Positions 7,465 to 52,621 of a stretch of 64,000 nucleotides of DNA are shown piece by piece. Position numbers and translations under genes: made by a program. This DNA comes from Armatimonadota bacterium (GTDB taxonomy: Bacteria; Armatimonadota; SYMT01): NCBI GenBank assembly GCA_041690135.1, contig JAWLHY010000002.1, forward strand, positions 256,001 through 320,000. The letters run 5' to 3'. The stretch's first letter is position 1. Each line of letters starts with the position of its first letter. The notes below the pieces were generated by a model, which saw nothing but the letters and a program-made list of their open reading frames with translations, was not told where the DNA came from and searched no databases.

Positions 7465-7536
<72 letters not shown>

Positions 7537-7573
7537 GTATTCCATCCATTCGACTGCTAGCCAGGACTAACAG

Positions 7574-7655
7574 TGGGCGAGGTGGGACTTGAACCCACAC
7601 GGTTTGCACCACTAGATCCTAAGTCTAGCGCGTCTGCCAATTCCGCCACTCACCC
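7574..7655 (-). tRNA. tRNA-Leu(TAG)
   Basis: GGGTGAGTGGCGGAATTGGCAGACGCGCTAGACTTAGGATCTAG...GGTTCAAGTCC; long variable arm. Confidence 0.96.
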
Positions 7656-7677
7656 GAAGGCCCGGATCGACTGACGA

Positions 7678-7750
<73 letters not shown>

Positions 7751-9837: not shown

Positions 9838-9920
9838 GCTGTGACTCTCGTCACTTCGCGGCCGTCCGTGCAGAGATCCCCCGGATAACATCTGTTCAGC
9901 GAGGTTTCCTCGCTAACTCG

Positions 9921-10046
9921 ACGCCTAATCCCACCAGGGAACGGGGGACCCAACCCCAGGGGCTAAGGACGCTTTCCTCCGCTTCCGCCGGAGGCCGTTC
10001 CGGGTGACTCTTCCTACCCGCGCCCGTCAGCTAACCTCGTCGGCGT
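9921..10046 (+). ncRNA. cyclic di-AMP (ydaO/yuaA) riboswitch
   Basis: P1 ACGCC/GGCGT encloses AATCC...GGAACGGGGGACCCA...GGGGCTAA...CCCGCGCCCGTCAGCTAACCTCGT, the hallmark ydaO motifs. Confidence 0.88.
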
Positions 10047-10135
10047 GGTGTGAAGAGATCGCAGGTGCGCGCCGTGGTTTCCGGAACCCCAAGAGGCTCC
10101 GGTAGGTTTCCGGCGCCTGCCCCGCGCGCTTTCCC

Positions 10136-43440: not shown

Positions 43441-43510
43441 GGAAGCGGGCCGGAGCGCCTGGGTTATCGAGCAGACGATCAACCCCCAGACGCACCACTT
43501 GCCTGCTTCC
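43441..43510 (+). ncRNA. Y RNA (compact, YrlB/metazoan-like)
   Basis: Terminal stem GGAAGCGGGC/GCCTGCTTCC, bulged CGGAG, GGGTTATC, 3' CACTTG; 23 nt upstream of the Ro60 start codon. Confidence 0.8.
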
Positions 43511-43533
43511 CCTTTCCTTTCGGAGTGGTGGCC

Positions 43534-45189
43534 ATGAGCTATCTGCAGAACGTTCTCTCCACCCGGCAAACGCCGCAGTCCGCCCCGATTCCCGGCACCG
43601 ACCAGGTTCCCAACAGCGCGGGCGGTTTTGCGTGGGCCGTCGACGACTGGACCCGGCTTGACCGCTTTCTGATCCTTGGTAGTGAAGGCGGCTCCTACTA
43701 CGCCGGCGAGCAGAAGCTGACGCTGGAGAACGCGGCTACCGTCAAACGCTGCGTGGAACTCGACGGCGAGCGGGCGGTCCGCCGCATCGTGGAGATCAGT
43801 GACGCCGGGCGCGCTCCCAGGAACGATCCCGCGATCTTTGCGCTGGCGGTGGCGTCGGCCTGGGGGGAAGCCTCCGCGCGGTCCGCGGCCTTCCGTGCCC
43901 TTCCCCGGGTTTGCCGGACCGGCACGCACCTGTTTCACTTCGCCGGTTACGTAGAGGGGATGCGGGGCTGGGGACGGGGCCTCCGCACGGCGGTGGCTTC
44001 CTGGTACTCGGAGCGGCCGGCGCGGGATCTCGCCTACCAGGCGGTGAAATACGGGCAGCGGGATGGCTGGAGCCATCGCGACCTGCTGCGGCTGGCGCAC
44101 CCGAAGGCGGAGCCCGATTCCGCGCACAACGCCCTCTACCGCTGGATCGTGAAGGGCTGGGAGGGCGTTGATGAGGAGCCCCATCCGGACCCGGACCTGC
44201 GCCTCATCTGGGCCTGCGAGCGGGTGAAGCGCGTCGGGACCCGCGAGGAGGTGGCGGCGCTGGTTGCCGAGTACGGCGTGCCGCGGGAGGCGGTACCCAC
44301 CTACTGGTTGGGGCAGGCGGTCGTGTGGGAGGCGCTCCTCCAGGGGATGCCGATGACGGCTCTCATCCGGAACCTGGCCACCCTCACCCGGGTGGGCCTG
44401 CTCACCCCGCACGCCGACGCCACCCGCCGGGTGGTGGCGCAGTTGACGGATGGAGAGCGACTCCGCCGGGCGCGGGTTCATCCCATCCAGGTGCTCTCGG
44501 CGCTCCGCACTTACGCCCAGGGGCACGGTGAGCGGGGCAATCACCAATGGGCGCCGGTGGCCCAGGTGGTGGATGCTCTCGACGCGGCCTTCTACACCGG
44601 TTTCGGCAACGTCTCGCCCACCGGCAAGCGTTGGATGCTGGCCCTGGATGTTTCCGGGTCGATGGCGTGCGGCCTGATCGCGGGGGTTCCCGGCCTCACA
44701 CCGCGGATCGCTTCCGCGGCAATGGCCCTCATCACGGCGGCGGTGGAACCGAATCATAGCCTGGTTGCCTTCACCGCGGGGCAAGGTGGTTACGGCGGAC
44801 AGTGGGGCGGCGGAGTCTCCGGCCTCACGCCCCTGGCCCTATCCCCCCGACAGCGGTTGGACGATGTGGTCAAGACGGTCGCCGCCCTTCCCATGGGCGG
44901 GACCGACTGCTCGCTGCCGATGCTCCACGCTACGAAGCACCGGATCCCCGTCGACTGCTTTGTGATTTACACGGACAGCGAGACGTGGCACGGGCAGATC
45001 CACCCCGCCCAGGCGCTCCGGGAGTACCGGGGCCGGATGGGCATTCCGGCCCGCCTGGTCGTCTGTGGGATGCTCTCCAACGGCTTCACCATCGCCGACC
45101 CGGACGATGCCGGCATGCTCGACGTCGTCGGCTTCGACACCGCCACCCCCAACCTGATCAGCGATTTCGCCGTGGGCAACGGCGCGTAA
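43534..45189 (+). CDS. rsr: Ro60 / TROVE domain RNA-binding protein with vWA domain
   Basis: QVPNSAGGF, RLDRFLILGSEGGSYY, KYGQRDGWSHRDLLRLAHP, MPMTALIRNL, MIDAS DVSGSM, GGTDC, YTDSET, GMLDVVGFD. Confidence 0.96.
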   Translation: MSYLQNVLSTRQTPQSAPIPGTDQVPNSAGGFAWAVDDWTRLDRFLILGSEGGSYYAGEQKLTLENAATVKRCVELDGERAVRRIVEISDAGRAPRNDPAIFALAVASAWGEASARSAAFRALPRVCRTGTHLFHFAGYVEGMRGWGRGLRTAVASWYSERPARDLAYQAVKYGQRDGWSHRDLLRLAHPKAEPDSAHNALYRWIVKGWEGVDEEPHPDPDLRLIWACERVKRVGTREEVAALVAEYGVPREAVPTYWLGQAVVWEALLQGMPMTALIRNLATLTRVGLLTPHADATRRVVAQLTDGERLRRARVHPIQVLSALRTYAQGHGERGNHQWAPVAQVVDALDAAFYTGFGNVSPTGKRWMLALDVSGSMACGLIAGVPGLTPRIASAAMALITAAVEPNHSLVAFTAGQGGYGGQWGGGVSGLTPLALSPRQRLDDVVKTVAALPMGGTDCSLPMLHATKHRIPVDCFVIYTDSETWHGQIHPAQALREYRGRMGIPARLVVCGMLSNGFTIADPDDAGMLDVVGFDTATPNLISDFAVGNGA

Positions 45190-45193
45190 ATTA

Positions 45194-45236
45194 GAACAAA
45201 AGTTTTATGACGACGCCGGAAGTACTGCGGTATTAT
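45194..45236 (+). promoter_or_regulatory. putative promoter with a LexA-box-like site upstream of the retron
   Basis: GAACAAAAGTTT (GAAC-N4-GTTY) at 45194-45205; ATGACG-N18-TATTAT immediately before the a1 repeat. Confidence 0.4.
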
Positions 45237-45238
45237 GT

Positions 45239-45503
45239 CGGTGGAAAGGGCAGTCTGGGGAGCGGGTTGTTGCTAGCATTCCGCCTGCGGCGTTTCGCCG
45301 TGGCTGCAGTGAAGCTCGCTTCACAGCACCGGCCACCGATGCCACTCAGCTCGGCAATAGGGGTACCCCTCTTATTCGCTGCGCTGGGGCGACGTGGTCC
45401 ACTACGAATAAGAGGGGTACCCCTACCGCCGAGCCTACAGTGATCGGTCCCGGTCCTCGGTGGGTAAGTAGCACTCTTCCGCTCTCCAGGCGCCTTTCCA
45501 CCG
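45239..45503 (+). ncRNA. retron msr-msd non-coding RNA
   Basis: a1/a2 repeats CGGTGGAAAGG..CTGGGGAGCGG / CCGCTCTCCAG..CCTTTCCACCG; inner TGCTA/TAGCA with candidate branching G45276; two short msr hairpins; msd hairpin with a 21-bp perfect core. Confidence 0.85.
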
Positions 45504-45532
45504 TTTTCGACGCGCCCGCGAGGAGTGCCGGA

Positions 45533-48500
45533 ATGACGCCTTCCGATGGAGCCAGGGCCCGGAGCCTGCTGCCCCAGGCCGGGAACGAGGACGAGGAGTT
45601 TCTCCTCCGGTTCGCGCGGGAGGCGCCGGCCCTTTACGGTACCTGGCGCTACCTGAAAGGCCTGTATAAGGATGCCGAGGCGGCGGCTTCCCCGGCGGTG
45701 CTCGGCGTGCTCATCGGTCGACTGGACACCCTGGACCCTCTGGGCCTCCGAGCAGAGACAATCGGCAACGGTCCGGACCTTTCCGGCGCGCTGGCGGTTT
45801 CGGTGGAGCCTCCGCTGGCCTGCGTCACCCTCTGGTCCGGCTTCGTGCTCCTGGACCTTTCGGACCCCGCGGCGCCCCGGCAGGTGTGCCGGGAGAATGC
45901 GGGCCGGACGAAACGCGCGGTCCTGGCGGGCGGCCGAGCCTACGTGGAACTGGAGGGAGAGAGGAACGCCGCGGACCGCATCCTGATCTTCGACCTCTCC
46001 AACCCGCGGCGGCCGGTGGATATCGGCGCCGTGGAGGTGCGGGGGGTCCGCGGGATGGCGGTGGTGGGGCAGCACCTCATCCTGGCCGAGGGCGTGGGGG
46101 CGGAGCGGGGTCGCCTGCGGGTGTTCGACGTGGCGGATCCCGGCCGGCCGGAACCGGTGGCGAACCTGGCGCTCCGCGACGTCTCTGGGATGGCGGTGTC
46201 CCACCGCCGGGCGTACGTGGCGAGCGGCGCCGGCCAGAGCCGTGCTCCCGGCCTGCACGTGGTCGACCTTTCCGATCCGCGGCAGCCCACGGTGCTCGGG
46301 TTCTTCCCGGTCAGCGCTGCGGGTGTGGTGGTGGACGACACGTACCTGGAAATCCAGCGGCGCGGCCGGACCCTGTGGGTCCTCGATCCCTCGGTGCCGC
46401 CGCCGGCAGCCGCGCAGCCTCCCGCGCCCAACCCGGCGGAAGCCCGGCCCGGACTGTTGCAACGGGTGACCAATCTGTTCCAGCGGCCCTCCGCCGAGCG
46501 AGCGGCAGAGGGGGCGTCTTCCCTGGCCCATGGCGTGTACGAGCGCGGGAACGACGGACGGATCCAGAGTGCGGCGGTCCACCGGGGTCACCTCTACCTG
46601 GCCCAACAGTGGGGCGGCCTGGAGGTCGTTTCTCTCGCGGAGCCGGGCGTGCCCAGGCGGGTGGGAGAAGTTTCCACCGGGAATTCGCCGTTTCTGGCGG
46701 TTTCGGGTGACCTGCTGTTCGCGTTTCCCCAGTATGGGCAATGGATGGTTTTCGACGTCTCCACGCCCGCGCACCCCGCGCAGCTCGGCCTGCCTCCGAG
46801 CTCGCGGACCGTGGGGTACATGAAGCGCCGTGCTCGCCGCTTCCTGCGCACGCTGGAGGCGCCGGAGCGTTTCGTGGAGACGGCCTACCATGCCCTGCTG
46901 GAAGCGGGCCGCGGCCGGAAGGAGCTCGACCTGGAGCAGCAGTGGGTCTCGGTCGACCTGCTCTACGGCCGGTCCGGACGGTACGTGCAAACCCGTCACG
47001 GGCGGGGGCCTTACGTGGCCCGGCAACCGGAGCTTCGGTCGCTGCGCCGAACCCGCGAGGAGCGCCGGCCCGAGGCGTGGGACCAGCGGCCGAACCTGGC
47101 GTGTGCCCTGTTCGCCGAGCCGGATCTGCCCTGGCAGGTCCACGAGTGCATGCTCAAGATCTTGCAGGCCAACCGCGAGCCCGTGCCGGCGCTCGGCCCG
47201 GGGCTGCGCCTGCGGTTCCTGCGCAGTGGGTCTCCCCTGCTGATCTTGCTGGCCGCCCGCGAGGTCGCTGGCGAGATCGAGGCCGGGACGAAGCTCGACG
47301 GCGAGCCGTCGGCCCGTGCGTACTTCTACGCGAACGCCACCCGTCGGAAGCAGATCGCGTCCCGGCTGGCCGCCCGCTCCGGATCTCCGGGTTGGGCCCG
47401 CCCCTTTGCCGCCACCCTGTTGGAGCTGATCGTCGCGGCGTTGGAGAGCGGAGGCATCTCCCGGCGCGTCGTGAGCGCGGCCGGTCTGCTCACCCGGAGC
47501 TTCTCGCCGTTCATCCCCGGAGAACGCCTTCTGCCCCTGGCGGTTCGGATGGTGGAATCGGGCCGGCCGGAGTTGCTCGAGCTCGTGCTGGCGGGGTTCC
47601 GCGGCGCCACGCTCAAGTCCCTTCCGGAATGGCTCGCGCTGTGGGGACAACTGCCCGAAGAGGCCCGGGAGCGAGCCTGGGGGGCGCTAGAATCCGGAAT
47701 GCGGCGGACCCGCATCACCTATGCGGCGGCGCTCGAACTGGTAACGGCGGAATCGGAGGCGGTCCGCGAAGGGGGCTGGCGCGTGCTGCAACTGCTCTCG
47801 CCGGAGCCGAAGCTGCTGAGTGCGCTCTGGGAGCAACTGCTCTCCACCACCGAGGAGACCCCGGCACTGCGCACGGCCGTCGGTTCCGCCGCGGCGCTCG
47901 CGTTGCTGGCGCGATCGGGATTGAGCCCGGACCGGCTGACCGAGCGGCTCACCGCGATCCCTTCCCTGGCGGGACTGCTGTCGCCGGAGACGATGGAGGT
48001 CGTCGCCGGATCGGTGCCGGTCGAGGGGCTCCTGTCGCTCGTCGCGGCTATCCCGGAGGCGCGCTGGACCGTGCTGCGCGGCGCGGTCCTGGAAGGCTTG
48101 CGGCAGTCCGGCCGGCTCGGCGCGTTCTGGAAGGTCGTGCCCTCGGCGCTGGGCGACCCCGTCTTGCAGCAGCGATTGCTGGAGGATCCTGCCGTCGTCG
48201 CCTCGCTGCTGACCGTGGAAGACCCGGCGGTGCTGGAGATCCCCGATCCGCCGTTTGAGGACCTGCTCTACCAGTGGGCGATTTCCCACGCCGGTCTGCT
48301 TCCCCGCGGCTCCTCGGGATTGTTGACCGCGGCCACTCACCCCCTGCCCCGGGTGCGCGATTGGGCCCTGGAGCGGGTGCGGGCCGAGGGGATGGACGTG
48401 CCCTTCGCTCTCCGCCTGCTGGAATCGACCGTTCCCGCCTCCATGGCGGTGGCGCAGGAGTTCTTCACCGCCGCCGCACCCGGCAGCCTGGATGAGATGA

Positions 48501-48934
48501 CCTACGCCCTGGCCTTGAGCGATAGCCCGGAGAGCGCGGTCCGCGCGGTGGGGCGGCAGTTCATCCACGACCGGTGGAGCACCCTGCCGCACTCCGACCT
48601 GCTGCGGGCCCTCTCGGAGCATGGGGACGCGGAGATGAACCGCTTCCTGGCGGACCTCCTTCTGCAAGAGGCGGACGAAGCCGTGGAGCGGTCATCGGAG
48701 GTCCGTGACTTCGAGCGCGGCGTGCTCCGTGCCCGCAACCGCGGGCGGCGCGCCAAGGAACGGGTGAAAGCCCGCCTCTCGCACACGGAGACGCCGGATG
48801 TCTCCCTCCTGCTGAGCCTCGCCCGCAGTGGAACCCCACGCGACGCCGAGTGGGCGATGAGCGAGTTGGGTCGCCTGGCGGCCTCCGGGGTCGCCGTGGA
48901 GGGGGTCAGCGTGGAAGGAGTGGCCGGGGTTTGA
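45533..48934 (+). CDS. retron-associated LVIVD beta-propeller + ARM/HEAT-like helical protein
   Basis: RBS AGGAG. Repeated (L/I).V.D(L/V)SDP..P motifs, followed by a long Leu/Ala/Arg-rich helical region. Confidence 0.8.
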   Translation: MTPSDGARARSLLPQAGNEDEEFLLRFAREAPALYGTWRYLKGLYKDAEAAASPAVLGVLIGRLDTLDPLGLRAETIGNGPDLSGALAVSVEPPLACVTLWSGFVLLDLSDPAAPRQVCRENAGRTKRAVLAGGRAYVELEGERNAADRILIFDLSNPRRPVDIGAVEVRGVRGMAVVGQHLILAEGVGAERGRLRVFDVADPGRPEPVANLALRDVSGMAVSHRRAYVASGAGQSRAPGLHVVDLSDPRQPTVLGFFPVSAAGVVVDDTYLEIQRRGRTLWVLDPSVPPPAAAQPPAPNPAEARPGLLQRVTNLFQRPSAERAAEGASSLAHGVYERGNDGRIQSAAVHRGHLYLAQQWGGLEVVSLAEPGVPRRVGEVSTGNSPFLAVSGDLLFAFPQYGQWMVFDVSTPAHPAQLGLPPSSRTVGYMKRRARRFLRTLEAPERFVETAYHALLEAGRGRKELDLEQQWVSVDLLYGRSGRYVQTRHGRGPYVARQPELRSLRRTREERRPEAWDQRPNLACALFAEPDLPWQVHECMLKILQANREPVPALGPGLRLRFLRSGSPLLILLAAREVAGEIEAGTKLDGEPSARAYFYANATRRKQIASRLAARSGSPGWARPFAATLLELIVAALESGGISRRVVSAAGLLTRSFSPFIPGERLLPLAVRMVESGRPELLELVLAGFRGATLKSLPEWLALWGQLPEEARERAWGALESGMRRTRITYAAALELVTAESEAVREGGWRVLQLLSPEPKLLSALWEQLLSTTEETPALRTAVGSAAALALLARSGLSPDRLTERLTAIPSLAGLLSPETMEVVAGSVPVEGLLSLVAAIPEARWTVLRGAVLEGLRQSGRLGAFWKVVPSALGDPVLQQRLLEDPAVVASLLTVEDPAVLEIPDPPFEDLLYQWAISHAGLLPRGSSGLLTAATHPLPRVRDWALERVRAEGMDVPFALRLLESTVPASMAVAQEFFTAAAPGSLDEMTYALALSDSPESAVRAVGRQFIHDRWSTLPHSDLLRALSEHGDAEMNRFLADLLLQEADEAVERSSEVRDFERGVLRARNRGRRAKERVKARLSHTETPDVSLLLSLARSGTPRDAEWAMSELGRLAASGVAVEGVSVEGVAGV

Positions 48935-49011
48935 GAGTTGAAGGCGAGTGTGAGGGGTAGGGGGACGAGTAGGAGTAAGAGTAAGAGTAGAAATCGGTTG
49001 GTACGGGATCA

Positions 49012-49151
49012 CGGGCAGTTGCACTGCCCGCGAAATACTTCGTCCCGCAGTTGCACTGCGGAAGCCTATGGTTTCGCAGTCGTTTCGGATCACCCAGATC
49101 GCCAATGCTGGTGCCAGGGCGGGGGCAGCGCAGTGCAACTGCGCACGAAGT
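49012..49151. repeat. REP/REPIN-like cluster of three GCAGT(T)GCA(A)CTGC palindromes
   Basis: Copies at 49012-49030, 49045-49061 and 49128-49144. The last two, with flanking ACTTCGT/ACGAAGT, form an inverted pair. A GAGTAA microrepeat lies upstream. Confidence 0.65.
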
Positions 49152-49251
49152 GTGACGGCTGCAGTCCAATCCATACGGACACATGTGCTGCAGCCGATCA
49201 GCCTGGCTTCCGCGGTTCGAAATACGCATCACGAATCACGCATCAAGACCT

Positions 49252-51186
49252 ATGCAGTTCACCCAATCCTATTCTCATCCGAGTACGGCCAGTATGGGGC
49301 CGGAGGGGCTCCGGCTGGACGTGGCCGCGGAGCAGCACCGGCCGCCGGTGTTCTTGCAGGCGATGGTGCGGGAGAGCCTCTCCTACGCCCGGCTGATGCT
49401 GGCGCTCTACCAGGTGGTGCAGGGGGATCTGCGCTCGAAGACGCGGGATCACAGCGCCTACCAGGAGTGGGTGCAGCAGCGTTATTTGGACGAGCTCTCG
49501 CCGCAACTGGCGGCCAACCGCGCGCGGATTCCGGGCCTGCTGCAGCAGCGGGACGAGTTGAGCGGCCGGATCTCGGAGCTGCATAAGGAAATCCGCGAGC
49601 TGGAGAAGCGGACCTCCGGCGCGGAGTTCCACAGCGCGAAACAGAGGTACTTCAACTGGCTGTGGAAGCACGACAAGGATGCCTGGTGGGTACTCGATCC
49701 CGTGGTGAGCGTCCATCCGGATGCCCTCATCTTCGAAGTCTTCTCCCAGGATGAATCGAGTTATGGCCGGGTCACGGTCCCCTCGGACCGGCTGGACGTG
49801 CTGGGGAACGTCGCCTACGGGACCACCAATATCGACTTCAGCCGCGCGCTGGCCCGCGAGATGGAGCGGGTGCGGAACTACCGTCCCGCCTGGCTCCAGA
49901 TCGGCGCGGAAGGCGTGACGATGGCCACTGGTGCCGGGGAAGCGGTGGAGAAGAAGATCGATCTGCCCCCGTCCTGGGTGCGCGGCTTCCTGCAGGTCCA
50001 GTCCGCGGCGGCGTTCGGCACCGTCGATCTGACGCTCAGCGCGGAGACGGTCGCCGAAGTGCTCTCCCTGCTGCGCCGGCAACGCGAGGAGGGCAGCCCG
50101 CGCTCCCTCCGGTTCCGTCTCGCCCCCGGCGAGTTGCCGGTCCTGATCGTGGAGCCGTGGAACGTCGAAATCCGGGAGTCGCAGCATGTGTATCGCGGCG
50201 ACCACCGGGGCGAAATCCGGCTGTGGGGGCGCCGGCGCCTGGCGGTCCTGGAGAATGTCCTGCCGCATGCCGAGGCGGTGCAGGTGCGACTGCTGGGCAC
50301 CGGGATGCCCTCCTATTGGAGCCTGCACCTGGGCAGCCACCGGTTCGACCTGGGTCTTTCCGGCTGGACCCGCAACGATTGGGCCAGGGCGGCCCGGTTC
50401 GATCTGCTGGCCTCCACCGGCGCCGTTTCGGAGCGGGATTTTGGAATTGCGGCCGCGAAACTGGAGGAGCGCCTGCGCCTGACCCCGGAGGAGCTGGCTA
50501 CGGTGGGCGGTCTCCCGCAGTCGGCCGCTGCCGCGGCCCTCCAGCAGCTCTGCGCGCGCGGGCAGGCGATGTTCGACCCCACCACGGGCGCCTACCGCTG
50601 GCGACCCTTGTTCGCCCACCCGGTGGAGCTGGAAAGCGACGAGGATAAGCGCCTGGCTTACGCGCGCCGCGTGCTGGAAGGCAACCGGGTGAAGTGGACC
50701 GGTAAGCCGGAAACAGTGCAGGACCGGGTGCGCCACACCGCCACCGTGCGCGGCGAGCGGGGCGAGAAGAACTTCCGGGTGATCCTGGAGCTGGACGCGG
50801 ACGGCCGGGTGCAGTACGCCGAGTGCACCTGTAGCTGGCACCGGCGGGAAAAGCTGCGCAAGGGCCCCTGCGGGCACATCCTGGCGGCCACGGCCCTGGC
50901 TTCCCAACTGGTGGAAGCAGGCACCGGAGGGCCGATCAACGCCCCCGATCCGCAGCGCTTCGCCGGCAAGACCTTTGTATTTACCGGGGCCCTCACCCGC
51001 TTCACCCGGGAAGAGGCGCACGCCATGGTGGAACAGGCCGGCGGAAAGCCCGGCAGCGACGTCAGCCGGAACACGGATTACCTGGTGGCGGGAGAGCGCG
51101 CCGGCTCCAAGCTCACCCGCGCCCGTTCCCTGAACATCCCGGTGCTGACGGAAGAAGAGTTCTTGAACATGCTTCAAGGGCGGTAG
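49252..51186 (+). CDS. retron-associated SWIM zinc-finger protein with C-terminal BRCT domain
   Basis: LDPVVSVHPD..FEVFSQDESSYG, EKKIDLPPSWVRGFLQVQSA, SWIM CTC...GPCGH, BRCT GKTFVFTGAL...TDYLVAGERAGSKL. Confidence 0.88.
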   Translation: MQFTQSYSHPSTASMGPEGLRLDVAAEQHRPPVFLQAMVRESLSYARLMLALYQVVQGDLRSKTRDHSAYQEWVQQRYLDELSPQLAANRARIPGLLQQRDELSGRISELHKEIRELEKRTSGAEFHSAKQRYFNWLWKHDKDAWWVLDPVVSVHPDALIFEVFSQDESSYGRVTVPSDRLDVLGNVAYGTTNIDFSRALAREMERVRNYRPAWLQIGAEGVTMATGAGEAVEKKIDLPPSWVRGFLQVQSAAAFGTVDLTLSAETVAEVLSLLRRQREEGSPRSLRFRLAPGELPVLIVEPWNVEIRESQHVYRGDHRGEIRLWGRRRLAVLENVLPHAEAVQVRLLGTGMPSYWSLHLGSHRFDLGLSGWTRNDWARAARFDLLASTGAVSERDFGIAAAKLEERLRLTPEELATVGGLPQSAAAAALQQLCARGQAMFDPTTGAYRWRPLFAHPVELESDEDKRLAYARRVLEGNRVKWTGKPETVQDRVRHTATVRGERGEKNFRVILELDADGRVQYAECTCSWHRREKLRKGPCGHILAATALASQLVEAGTGGPINAPDPQRFAGKTFVFTGALTRFTREEAHAMVEQAGGKPGSDVSRNTDYLVAGERAGSKLTRARSLNIPVLTEEEFLNMLQGR

Positions 51187-51193
51187 AAATCCG

Positions 51194-52621
51194 ATGTTAA
51201 CTCCTACACGACAGGATAGAGCCTACTGGCGGGAGCGGGTCCGGGAGATCGGGCTCACCGGGGTGATCCGGGAGGAGATGACCCGGCTGGGGTTCTGGCC
51301 GCCGAACGAGGAAGTGGGGCGGCAGGCTGCGGAGGCGATGGCGGAGCTGCGGGTGCGGTACCGCGATCTGGCGGAACTCCGGGAACAGCTACAGCGTCTC
51401 GAGCAGGAGTTGGGGGATGCCCAGAACATCGCCGCGATGATCGCCGAGATTCGCAAGCGGCGGATTGAGCGGGTGCGCGCGCAGCGGGAAGTCCGCCGGG
51501 AGCAGCGCGCCCGGGAGCGCGAGGAGCGGCGACGGCAGGATGAAGAATGGCGCCGGACCACCTTGCCGTTCCTGGGTCGCGGCGTCTCCGGCGGGTTGAT
51601 CTACACCGGTGGTGACCCGGTGCGGCTGGAGTCGCTGGGCCTGCCGGTCGTGGAGACGGCGGTGGATCTGGCGGCGGCGATGGAGATCCCGGTGGAGGAG
51701 CTGACCTGGCTCACCTATCACCGGGGCGCGGCCCGCACGGACCACTACCATCGCTTTACGATCCCGAAGCGGCATGGGGGTGTAAGGGTCATCTCCTCGC
51801 CCAAGCGGAACCTGCGCGCCGCCCAGCGCTGGATCCTGGCCTCCATCCTGGCGGAGCAGGAGGTCCATCCCGCGGCGATGGCGTTCCGCCCGAAACGCTC
51901 CATCGTCGATAACGCGGTGGCGCATGCGGGCCGGGCGGTGGTCGTACGCGTGGACCTGAAGGACTTCTTTCCCTCCATCACCTTCCGGCGGGTCAAGGGG
52001 CTGTACGAGTCGTTCGGCTACAACGAGGGGATCTCGACCCTCCTGGCGCTCCTCTCCACGGAGCCGCCCCGCGTGGCTCTGATGGTGGACGGCCAGCGCC
52101 GTTTCGTCAGTCTCGGGGATCGCCAGCTACCCCAGGGCGCCTGTACGTCCCCCGCCATCACGAACCTGCTTTGCCGGAAGCTGGACCGTCGCCTGGAGCG
52201 CGCCGCATCCGCGTTCGGGTTTACCTACACCCGCTATGCCGACGACCTGGTCTTCTCTCACGACCGGGAGGAGGCGCCGGTGGGAGCCATGCTGACCCTG
52301 GCGCGCTCCATCCTGTCCGACGAGGGCTTCACCGTCAACGAGGAGAAGACCGCGGTGATGCGGCCCCAGCACCGGCAGGTAGTGACCGGGATTGTCGTGA
52401 ACGGCGAGCCGGCCCGGGTCTCCCGGCGGGACCTGCGCCGGTTCCGGGCTTTCCTGCACCACTGCGAAACCGAGGGCTTCGCAGTGATGTCGCAGCGTCT
52501 CGGCCGGGATGCCCGCGCCTACGCGGCCGGCTATCTCTCCTTCATCCACATGGTCAACCCGGAACAGGAAGAGCGGATCCGCGCGCGGCATCCCTGGCTC
52601 TCACGCTGGGGTGAGGCGTAA
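51194..52621 (+). CDS. retron-type reverse transcriptase (type XIII / Mx162-like)
   Basis: IPKRHGG.R, region X NAVAH, DLKDFFPSI, LPQGACTSP, YTRYADD, region Y VTG; N-terminal EEM.RLGFWP coiled-coil extension. Confidence 0.93.
   Translation: MLTPTRQDRAYWRERVREIGLTGVIREEMTRLGFWPPNEEVGRQAAEAMAELRVRYRDLAELREQLQRLEQELGDAQNIAAMIAEIRKRRIERVRAQREVRREQRAREREERRRQDEEWRRTTLPFLGRGVSGGLIYTGGDPVRLESLGLPVVETAVDLAAAMEIPVEELTWLTYHRGAARTDHYHRFTIPKRHGGVRVISSPKRNLRAAQRWILASILAEQEVHPAAMAFRPKRSIVDNAVAHAGRAVVVRVDLKDFFPSITFRRVKGLYESFGYNEGISTLLALLSTEPPRVALMVDGQRRFVSLGDRQLPQGACTSPAITNLLCRKLDRRLERAASAFGFTYTRYADDLVFSHDREEAPVGAMLTLARSILSDEGFTVNEEKTAVMRPQHRQVVTGIVVNGEPARVSRRDLRRFRAFLHHCETEGFAVMSQRLGRDARAYAAGYLSFIHMVNPEQEERIRARHPWLSRWGEA

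Follow-up and report, generated by a model that had tools for sequence, protein, structure and literature searches.

A probable msr-msd RNA gene of a type XIII retron at the head of its ARM-SWIM-RT gene set in an Armatimonadota bacterium

In this study, we analysed a 64,000-nt stretch of an Armatimonadota genome (contig JAWLHY010000002.1, positions 256,001 to 320,000; hereafter the window) and found, by comparison of sequences, that the element at 45239-45503 is very probably the msr-msd noncoding RNA (ncRNA) gene of a type XIII retron, whose ARM/WGR, SWIM-BRCT, and reverse transcriptase (RT) genes lie on the same strand. A preliminary description of this DNA had already proposed a retron msr-msd RNA here, and the proposal is borne out by homology over all 206 model positions to Myxococcota RNAs located 5′ of the RT, by covariation, by an invariant G, and by type XIII protein profiles. 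The tie to experimentally validated retrons runs through these Myxococcota homologues and the protein profiles, Mx162 being likened by description.

Results

The element and its predicted fold

The minimum free energy (MFE) of 45230-45510 was −160.5 kcal/mol, compared with −108.4 ± 5.3 kcal/mol in 200 dinucleotide shuffles, none of which folded as well (z = −9.83). The MFE structure is closed by an inverted repeat whose a1 arm (45239-45266) forms 26 pairs with the a2 arm (45478-45503); a repeat finder gave the same arms, and the a1/a2 duplex has an energy of −48.5 kcal/mol (z = −5.6 against shuffles). Inside it, TGCTA (45271-45275) pairs with TAGCA (45469-45473), leaving unpaired the predicted branching (priming) G at 45276 in the context CTAGC. 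The msr region (45280-45330) folds into two hairpins, at 45287-45301 (GCGGCG-TTT-CGCCGT) and 45302-45330, the latter with the core GTGAAG-CTCG-CTTCAC at 45309-45324. The msd region, the predicted template, occupies 45331-45468, with G45468 as the predicted first templating base, and forms a long stem of 45335-45378 with 45405-45448, the 44-nt arms of which are 82% complementary according to the repeat finder, contain a perfect 21-bp core (45358-45378 with 45405-45425), and enclose an apical loop at 45379-45404. All of these parts are read on the plus strand. The inverted repeats, the inner pair that leaves G45276 in a TAGC context, the two hairpins, and the long msd stem had each been pointed out in the preliminary description, and all reappeared in the MFE structure at the places stated.

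The element thus combines the traits of a retron msr-msd RNA, namely a1/a2 repeats, a priming G in TAGC, and msr hairpins followed by a long msd stem; by the definition in the main text of Mestre et al. (2020; PMC7736814), a retron ncRNA has between one and three msr hairpins, and a long msd stem-loop comes after them. It starts 50 nt after the stop codon of a Ro60 gene and ends 30 nt before the start codon of the ARM gene, and a covariance model built from its homologues (R1, see below) found it as a single copy both in the window and in the whole 9.1-Mb genome. No Rfam family matched the element at its gathering score or at E ≤ 10. When the element was compared by blastn with collections of phages and plasmids, nothing matched at E ≤ 0.01, and there is no sign that the msd stem is a copy of a known phage or plasmid sequence. 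Elsewhere, the window contains a c-di-AMP riboswitch (78.6 bits; 9912-10059, plus strand) and three tRNA genes (7465-7750, minus strand).

The retron protein genes

Three plus-strand genes make up the protein part of the retron. The ARM/HEAT and WGR accessory gene (45533-48934; 1133 aa) matched the PADLOC profiles WGR_XIII (7.8e-26) and HEAT-ARM_XIII (3.9e-12); GAGGAG lies 8 nt before its ATG, and the start is backed by a tblastn alignment from residue 1 in locus L004. The SWIM effector gene (49183-51186; 667 aa; SWIM_XIII, 6.8e-171) encodes a CxCx12CxH motif (CTC-x12-CGH, residues 548-565) and a C-terminal BRCT domain (6.5e-13, residues 592-663) that resembles the BRCT domains of NAD-dependent DNA ligase and RFC1. 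Armatimonadota homologues of the SWIM protein align to its end (about residue 665), while those of other phyla stop at about residues 568-584. The RT gene (51194-52621; 475 aa; 7e-156) has RT_XIII (clade 10) as its best PADLOC profile, with 517.9 bits against 318.1 for the next, and its product carries NAVAH at 240, YADD at 348, and VTG at 397 behind a charged N-terminal extension of roughly 140 aa. The ARM/WGR, SWIM, and RT genes match the type XIII gene set as defined in Table 1 of Mestre et al. (2020; PMC7736814). Among solved structures, type XIII proteins are absent save for distant relatives of the RT, the closest chain being the Ec86 RT (6.3e-46), and the SWIM protein matched only through its BRCT domain.

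The RT gene begins 7 nt after the SWIM gene, which ends at 51186, exactly the spacing that had been noted before, and 36 nt separate the RT from the next open reading frame (ORF), on the other strand. The distance from the end of the RNA, as matched by the model, to the RT is 5720 nt. The ARM-SWIM gap of the window (48935-49182) holds three copies of the REP/MITE-like sequence GCAGTTGCACTGC, two direct and one inverted (49015-49027, 49047-49059, and 49130-49142); this motif occurs 78 times in the genome, compared with once for its reversed control, and often in a 2+1 or 2+2 layout. In most relatives the ARM and SWIM genes, taken as longest ORFs, overlap or are separated by at most a few tens of nucleotides.

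Homologous RNAs and their position

A scan with the SWIM protein, taking one genome per species, returned 80 loci, of which 28 (L001-L028) matched the SWIM core and the other 52 the BRCT domain only. According to tblastn, ARM-SWIM-RT is kept in 10 of them, eight titled as Armatimonadota families (L001-L007 and L028), one from Actinomycetota (L008), and one from Verrucomicrobia (L009), and SWIM-RT is kept in 15 Thermoactinomycetaceae and two Myxococcota loci; L027 is a fragment. Folding of the 500 nt before each ARM gene revealed the same architecture, with common sequence blocks. From 12 trimmed homologue copies, without a1/a2, we built the covariance model R1 (206 positions, 63 pairs). Applied to the window and the 28 loci, R1 gave 32 full-length matches in 26 of the 28 loci, plus that of the window itself; the match in L008 is cut by the contig start, L027, with a contig that starts within the ARM gene, gave none, and four weak matches (E 0.0017-0.59) were disregarded. 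A covariance model from the regions upstream of homologous ARM genes had been proposed as a check on the reading of the element, and this match rate, together with heavy covariation, speaks in its favour.

The order ncRNA-ARM-SWIM-RT was found in all 24 non-myxobacterial loci that could be judged, with 4196-7270 nt from the end of the RNA to the RT, the RNA lying ahead of an ARM-like gene in Armatimonadota, Verrucomicrobia, and Thermoactinomycetaceae. The two Myxococcota loci have the RNA between SWIM and RT, 62 and 104 nt before the RT, which corresponds to the classical position immediately 5′ of the RT that the preliminary description had cited for Mx162. Taken together, the 24 operon-head loci and the two RT-adjacent loci therefore show one RNA family in both positions, and by R1 the window's element is homologous to RNAs beside type XIII RTs in Firmicutes as well as Myxococcota loci. 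The layout upstream of ARM is the norm for type XIII outside the myxobacteria and not an oddity. Of 151 sampled genomes of the window's phylum, 18 gave an R1 match, including the window's own, against none of the six from the window's family; 17 of the 18 ncRNA loci in those other genomes of the phylum have an ARM homologue just downstream, the exception being L099.

Covariation and key bases

In A1, a MAFFT alignment of 12 copies, RNAalifold predicted 63 pairs, and compensatory change was seen at 34 of these. A larger alignment, A3, holds 53 R1 matches from 44 sources searched; it leaves out L008 and L027 (no full match), L081 (the window's own genome), L082 (bit score equal to that of L006 and taken as the same sequence), and L100-L103 (overlapping L093, L094, L097, and L096). 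In A3, 91.9% of the cells are standard pairs, compared with 32.4-47.7% when the partners are slid by one to three columns. A3 was fitted to the model structure, which favours pairing; the unfitted A1 gives the same picture. Both sides have changed in 57 of the 63 pairs of A3. None of 500 shuffles reached its percentage paired, its number of pairs changed, its number of cells changed, or its covariation score; for the number of further pair types, 479 of the 500 equalled the alignment, and this measure is therefore uninformative. Both-side changes affect 5 of the 5 pairs of consensus helix 1, the inner stem (92% of cells paired), 8 of the 9 pairs of msr hairpin 1 (94%), and all 29 pairs of the msd stem (helices 7-9).

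The branch G column is G in all 53 copies, with a preceding A in 41 and a following C in 50, and the column of 45468, just 5′ of the 3′ side of the inner stem, is G in 52 of 53. The published text on retron priming describes a G in a conserved AGC, mostly TAGC and in Mx162 CAGC (PMC6868368), and a second source, as far as its text was available, gives the G as often preceded by TTA and the first reverse-transcribed base as mostly G (10.1101/2024.01.25.577267); the predicted branch G and first template base of the element fit both published rules. Compared with the 52 other copies, the msr of the window reaches 73-81% identity to the 15 that resemble it most. Two observations concern the apical loop of the msd (45379-45404): CGCTG.G and a CA within it are invariant in 12 of 12 A1 copies while the surrounding stem varies freely, and its GCTGAG is complementary to an invariant CTCAGC at the base of the msd stem (45344-45350 in the window).

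Ends of the element

A promoter-like site on the plus strand, ATGACG-18 nt-TATTAT (45207-45236), ends 3 nt before a1 and is the sole sigma-70-like match in 45000-45700 (one found, 0.1 expected); relatives carry TATAAT or TATACT about 7-12 nt before their own a1. Directly after a2 comes a TTTT run (45504-45507, plus strand), a possible partial terminator, and a standard terminator scan after the a2 of the window found none. A run of at least four T lies 9-55 nt past the model match in 23 of 35 Armatimonadota and Verrucomicrobia copies, compared with a share of 0.17 for random 47-mers.

The closing repeats of the relatives keep their pairing without conserving their sequence: in Armatimonadota, Verrucomicrobia, and Myxococcota copies a1/a2 mostly comprise 15-34 pairs and have no sequence in common. 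In Thermoactinomycetaceae (L010-L024) they are short, about 6-10 bp, and judged by eye are followed in most of the 16 copies by a GC-rich hairpin with a T-run; because of this canonical terminator, the RNA there is its own transcription unit, and at some of these loci it lies 0.8-3 kb away from the ARM-like gene.

Six loci (L001, L002, L003, L004, L006, and L007) carry, some 100 nt before the −10 box of the ncRNA, the palindrome TCTCA-N5-TGAGA, in most cases extended to TTCTCA...TGAGAA, placed after the terminator of the upstream gene. It may be a regulator site, and it is absent from the window.

Tandem ncRNA genes

Several loci carry more than one copy of the RNA: L005 and L028 have three each, and L016, L093, L094, L096, and L097 have two. 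The arrays, which lie at 5539-6331 of L005, 5595-6430 of L028, and 6518-7097 of L016, each stand before one ARM-SWIM-RT set. Within arrays the msr regions are 76-100% identical, but the msd stems only 17-65%, close to random identity. The two copies of L016 (6470-6790 and 6845-7165) are identical over the roughly 300 nt that align before the similarity breaks down, except at three single positions not belonging to the stem and in one block of the stem itself; in this block both arms differ with pairing kept in each copy, as judged by eye. The first copies of L005 and L028 have stems that are 96% identical and msr regions that are 84% identical. This pattern suggests that msd stems are kept or exchanged as units and that they matter for function. 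Rice and Lampson reportedly described msd stems as hypervariable in myxobacteria in 1995. A literature search on tandem retron ncRNA genes found no retron paper with the phrases used.

A Ro60 gene and a Y-RNA-like element upstream

The gene immediately upstream of the element encodes Ro60 (43525-45189, plus strand; TROVE 3.7e-48, vWA_Ro60 3e-62). Ahead of it, a Y-RNA-like element at 43441-43509 (plus strand) scored 36.5 bits (E 3.3e-5) with RF01656 (sbRNA), the gathering score being 38; its fold has a z of −3.3 and it carries a GGGUUAUC...CACC-ACUUG helix. One to two such elements are also found upstream of Ro60 in three relatives of the same family (L105, L106, and L107), and L105 and L106 have matches to the tRNA model, 106-135 nt long, upstream of Ro60. 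From these sequence features, 43441-43509 and the Ro60 gene look like a bacterial Ro60/Y RNA module.

Discussion

Our analysis would assign a function to a 265-nt intergenic element and would make complete the annotated parts of a type XIII retron from a phylum that has received little study; the loci closest to it carry Armatimonadota titles. By the model of retron action that we propose, transcription would start just before a1, from the TATTAT box, and the RNA would close through a1/a2. The RT would be translated from the distal part of this transcript or of one that reads through, and would act in trans, binding the msr hairpins, after which the 2′-OH of G45276 would prime DNA synthesis at the template base G45468. 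Copying of the msd stem back to about 45330-45345 would yield an msDNA that is branched and roughly 125-140 nt long. Some transcripts may terminate at the T-run that follows a2, leaving the ncRNA in excess of the mRNA. By analogy with other retrons, the RT-msDNA complex might hold or inform the ARM/WGR and SWIM proteins in phage defence; in the literature searched, as far as its text was accessible, we found none establishing a defence role for type XIII.

The closeness of the element to the ARM gene, whose start codon follows after 30 nt, and the T-run behind the closing stem would also suit an attenuator or structured 5′ leader whose only role is to control the ARM-SWIM-RT operon in cis, without ever being reverse transcribed. 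We regard this as very unlikely, given that the same RNA stands between SWIM and RT in Myxococcota, that in Thermoactinomycetaceae it has a terminator of its own and can be 0.8-3 kb from the ARM gene, that it occurs in tandem arrays, and that an invariant G in an AGC context and a variable stem that keeps its pairs are retron traits. There is next to no probability that the element is an inverted repeat arisen by chance in GC-rich DNA, or one of the REP/MITE type: the genome does contain dispersed palindromic repeats, one family of them in the ARM-SWIM gap, but the fold of the element (z = −9.8), its conservation with compensatory change across four phyla, and its fixed place relative to the retron genes all contradict this origin. 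A REP/MITE or other dispersed repeat is excluded because the genome contains the element only once.

The genes of Y RNAs usually neighbour rsr, and a long 5′/3′ stem closes these RNAs. The element, beginning 50 nt after the Ro60 stop codon, might accordingly be taken for the Y RNA partner of this protein, an assignment to which we give hardly any credence. None of the 28 SWIM loci has a Ro60 match, yet 26 have the RNA; a separate Y-RNA-like element already lies upstream of Ro60; and no Y RNA or sbRNA match was found at 45239-45503 at E ≤ 10. Conversely, the three family relatives with Ro60 show no ncRNA match, R1 being found in 0 of 6 genomes of the family, and since these Ro60-bearing relatives lack a match to the ncRNA or to R1, the ncRNA is not the partner of Ro60. 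The adjacency of the two looks incidental, and a retron msr-msd RNA remains by far the best reading of the element.

The position of this msr-msd RNA bears on how such genes are searched for. The preliminary description had held that the order ncRNA-ARM-SWIM-RT would escape searches limited to the flanks of the RT. This is correct for one census, in which, as its available text states, the prediction of ncRNAs by folding was confined to 500 bp around the RT (10.1101/2024.01.25.577267), so that the window's element would be missed; the rarity that the claim implied is overstated, given the 24 of 24 non-myxobacterial loci with this order. A 2026 survey, according to the part of its text at hand, searched the published type XIII models within ±10 kb of RTs (PMC13712802). 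For type XIII retrons, the place to look for the template RNA is in front of the first accessory gene, at a distance of several kilobases from the RT, and it will escape pipelines whose folding covers just a few hundred bases on the flanks of the RT. From the tested covariance model and the 53 aligned copies one can read the branch G, the first base of the template, and the variable stem, as expression or re-engineering of these retrons requires.

The tandem arrays raise a further idea, which we put forward tentatively and consider rather doubtful, that the type XIII ncRNA gene stands on its own, acts in trans, and can be multiplied, and that its msd stem is a swappable specificity cassette. 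Were it so, one RT would produce several msDNAs, each perhaps sensing a different trigger, and the single copy of the window would be the simplest state.

Type XIII ncRNA classes named Firmicutes, Ne144, Mx162, and Mx65 have been published (Mestre et al., 2020; PMC7736814), and the main text of that paper names no Armatimonadota or Verrucomicrobia ncRNA class. In terms of this published text, the window's element belongs to a known retron type in a phylum not named for a type XIII ncRNA class. Within the passages of the literature that were accessible, there is no statement on the place of the type XIII ncRNA relative to ARM and SWIM, which Figure 5 or the supplements of PMC7736814 may show. 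The 'XIII Firmicutes' model presumably describes the RNAs of the Thermoactinomycetaceae, found by R1 in 15 of 15 loci; like the window's element, these head the order ncRNA-ARM-SWIM-RT, and they differ from it by their a1/a2 of about 6-10 bp and their own terminator.

Retron-Mxa1 (Mx162), Mx65, Sa163, and Ne144 are of the same type as the window's retron by their RT, SWIM, and ARM/WGR profiles (PMC7736814, Table 1). As described in the available text of PMC6868368, the myxobacterial type XIII retrons have, like that of the window, an RT with a long N-terminal extension, long a1/a2, and a branch G in AGC, and the RNA is of similar size in both, about 240-265 nt, the primary transcript of Mx162 measuring 241 nt; the branch context is TAGC in the window and CAGC in Mx162, for which the likeness is one of description. 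The Mx162 type, however, has its RNA between SWIM and RT, while that of the window precedes both ARM and SWIM at a distance of 5.7 kb from the RT, and the SWIM protein of the window has an extra BRCT domain in comparison with myxobacterial type XIII. An msr-msd separated from its RT by ORFs has been described, in the text seen of the two sources, for Retron-Eco3 (Ec73), Retron-Sen2 (St85), and Retron-Vch2 (Vc81) (PMC6868368; PMC11701397); these retrons resemble that of the window in having accessory ORFs in this place, but they belong to another retron type and have one short intervening ORF, whereas two genes totalling 5.4 kb intervene in the window. Retron-Eco1 (Ec86), whose RT comes nearest in sequence among the solved structures (E 6.3e-46), is of type II-A3, with an RT that lacks the N-terminal extension and with an effector and an ncRNA other than those of the window.
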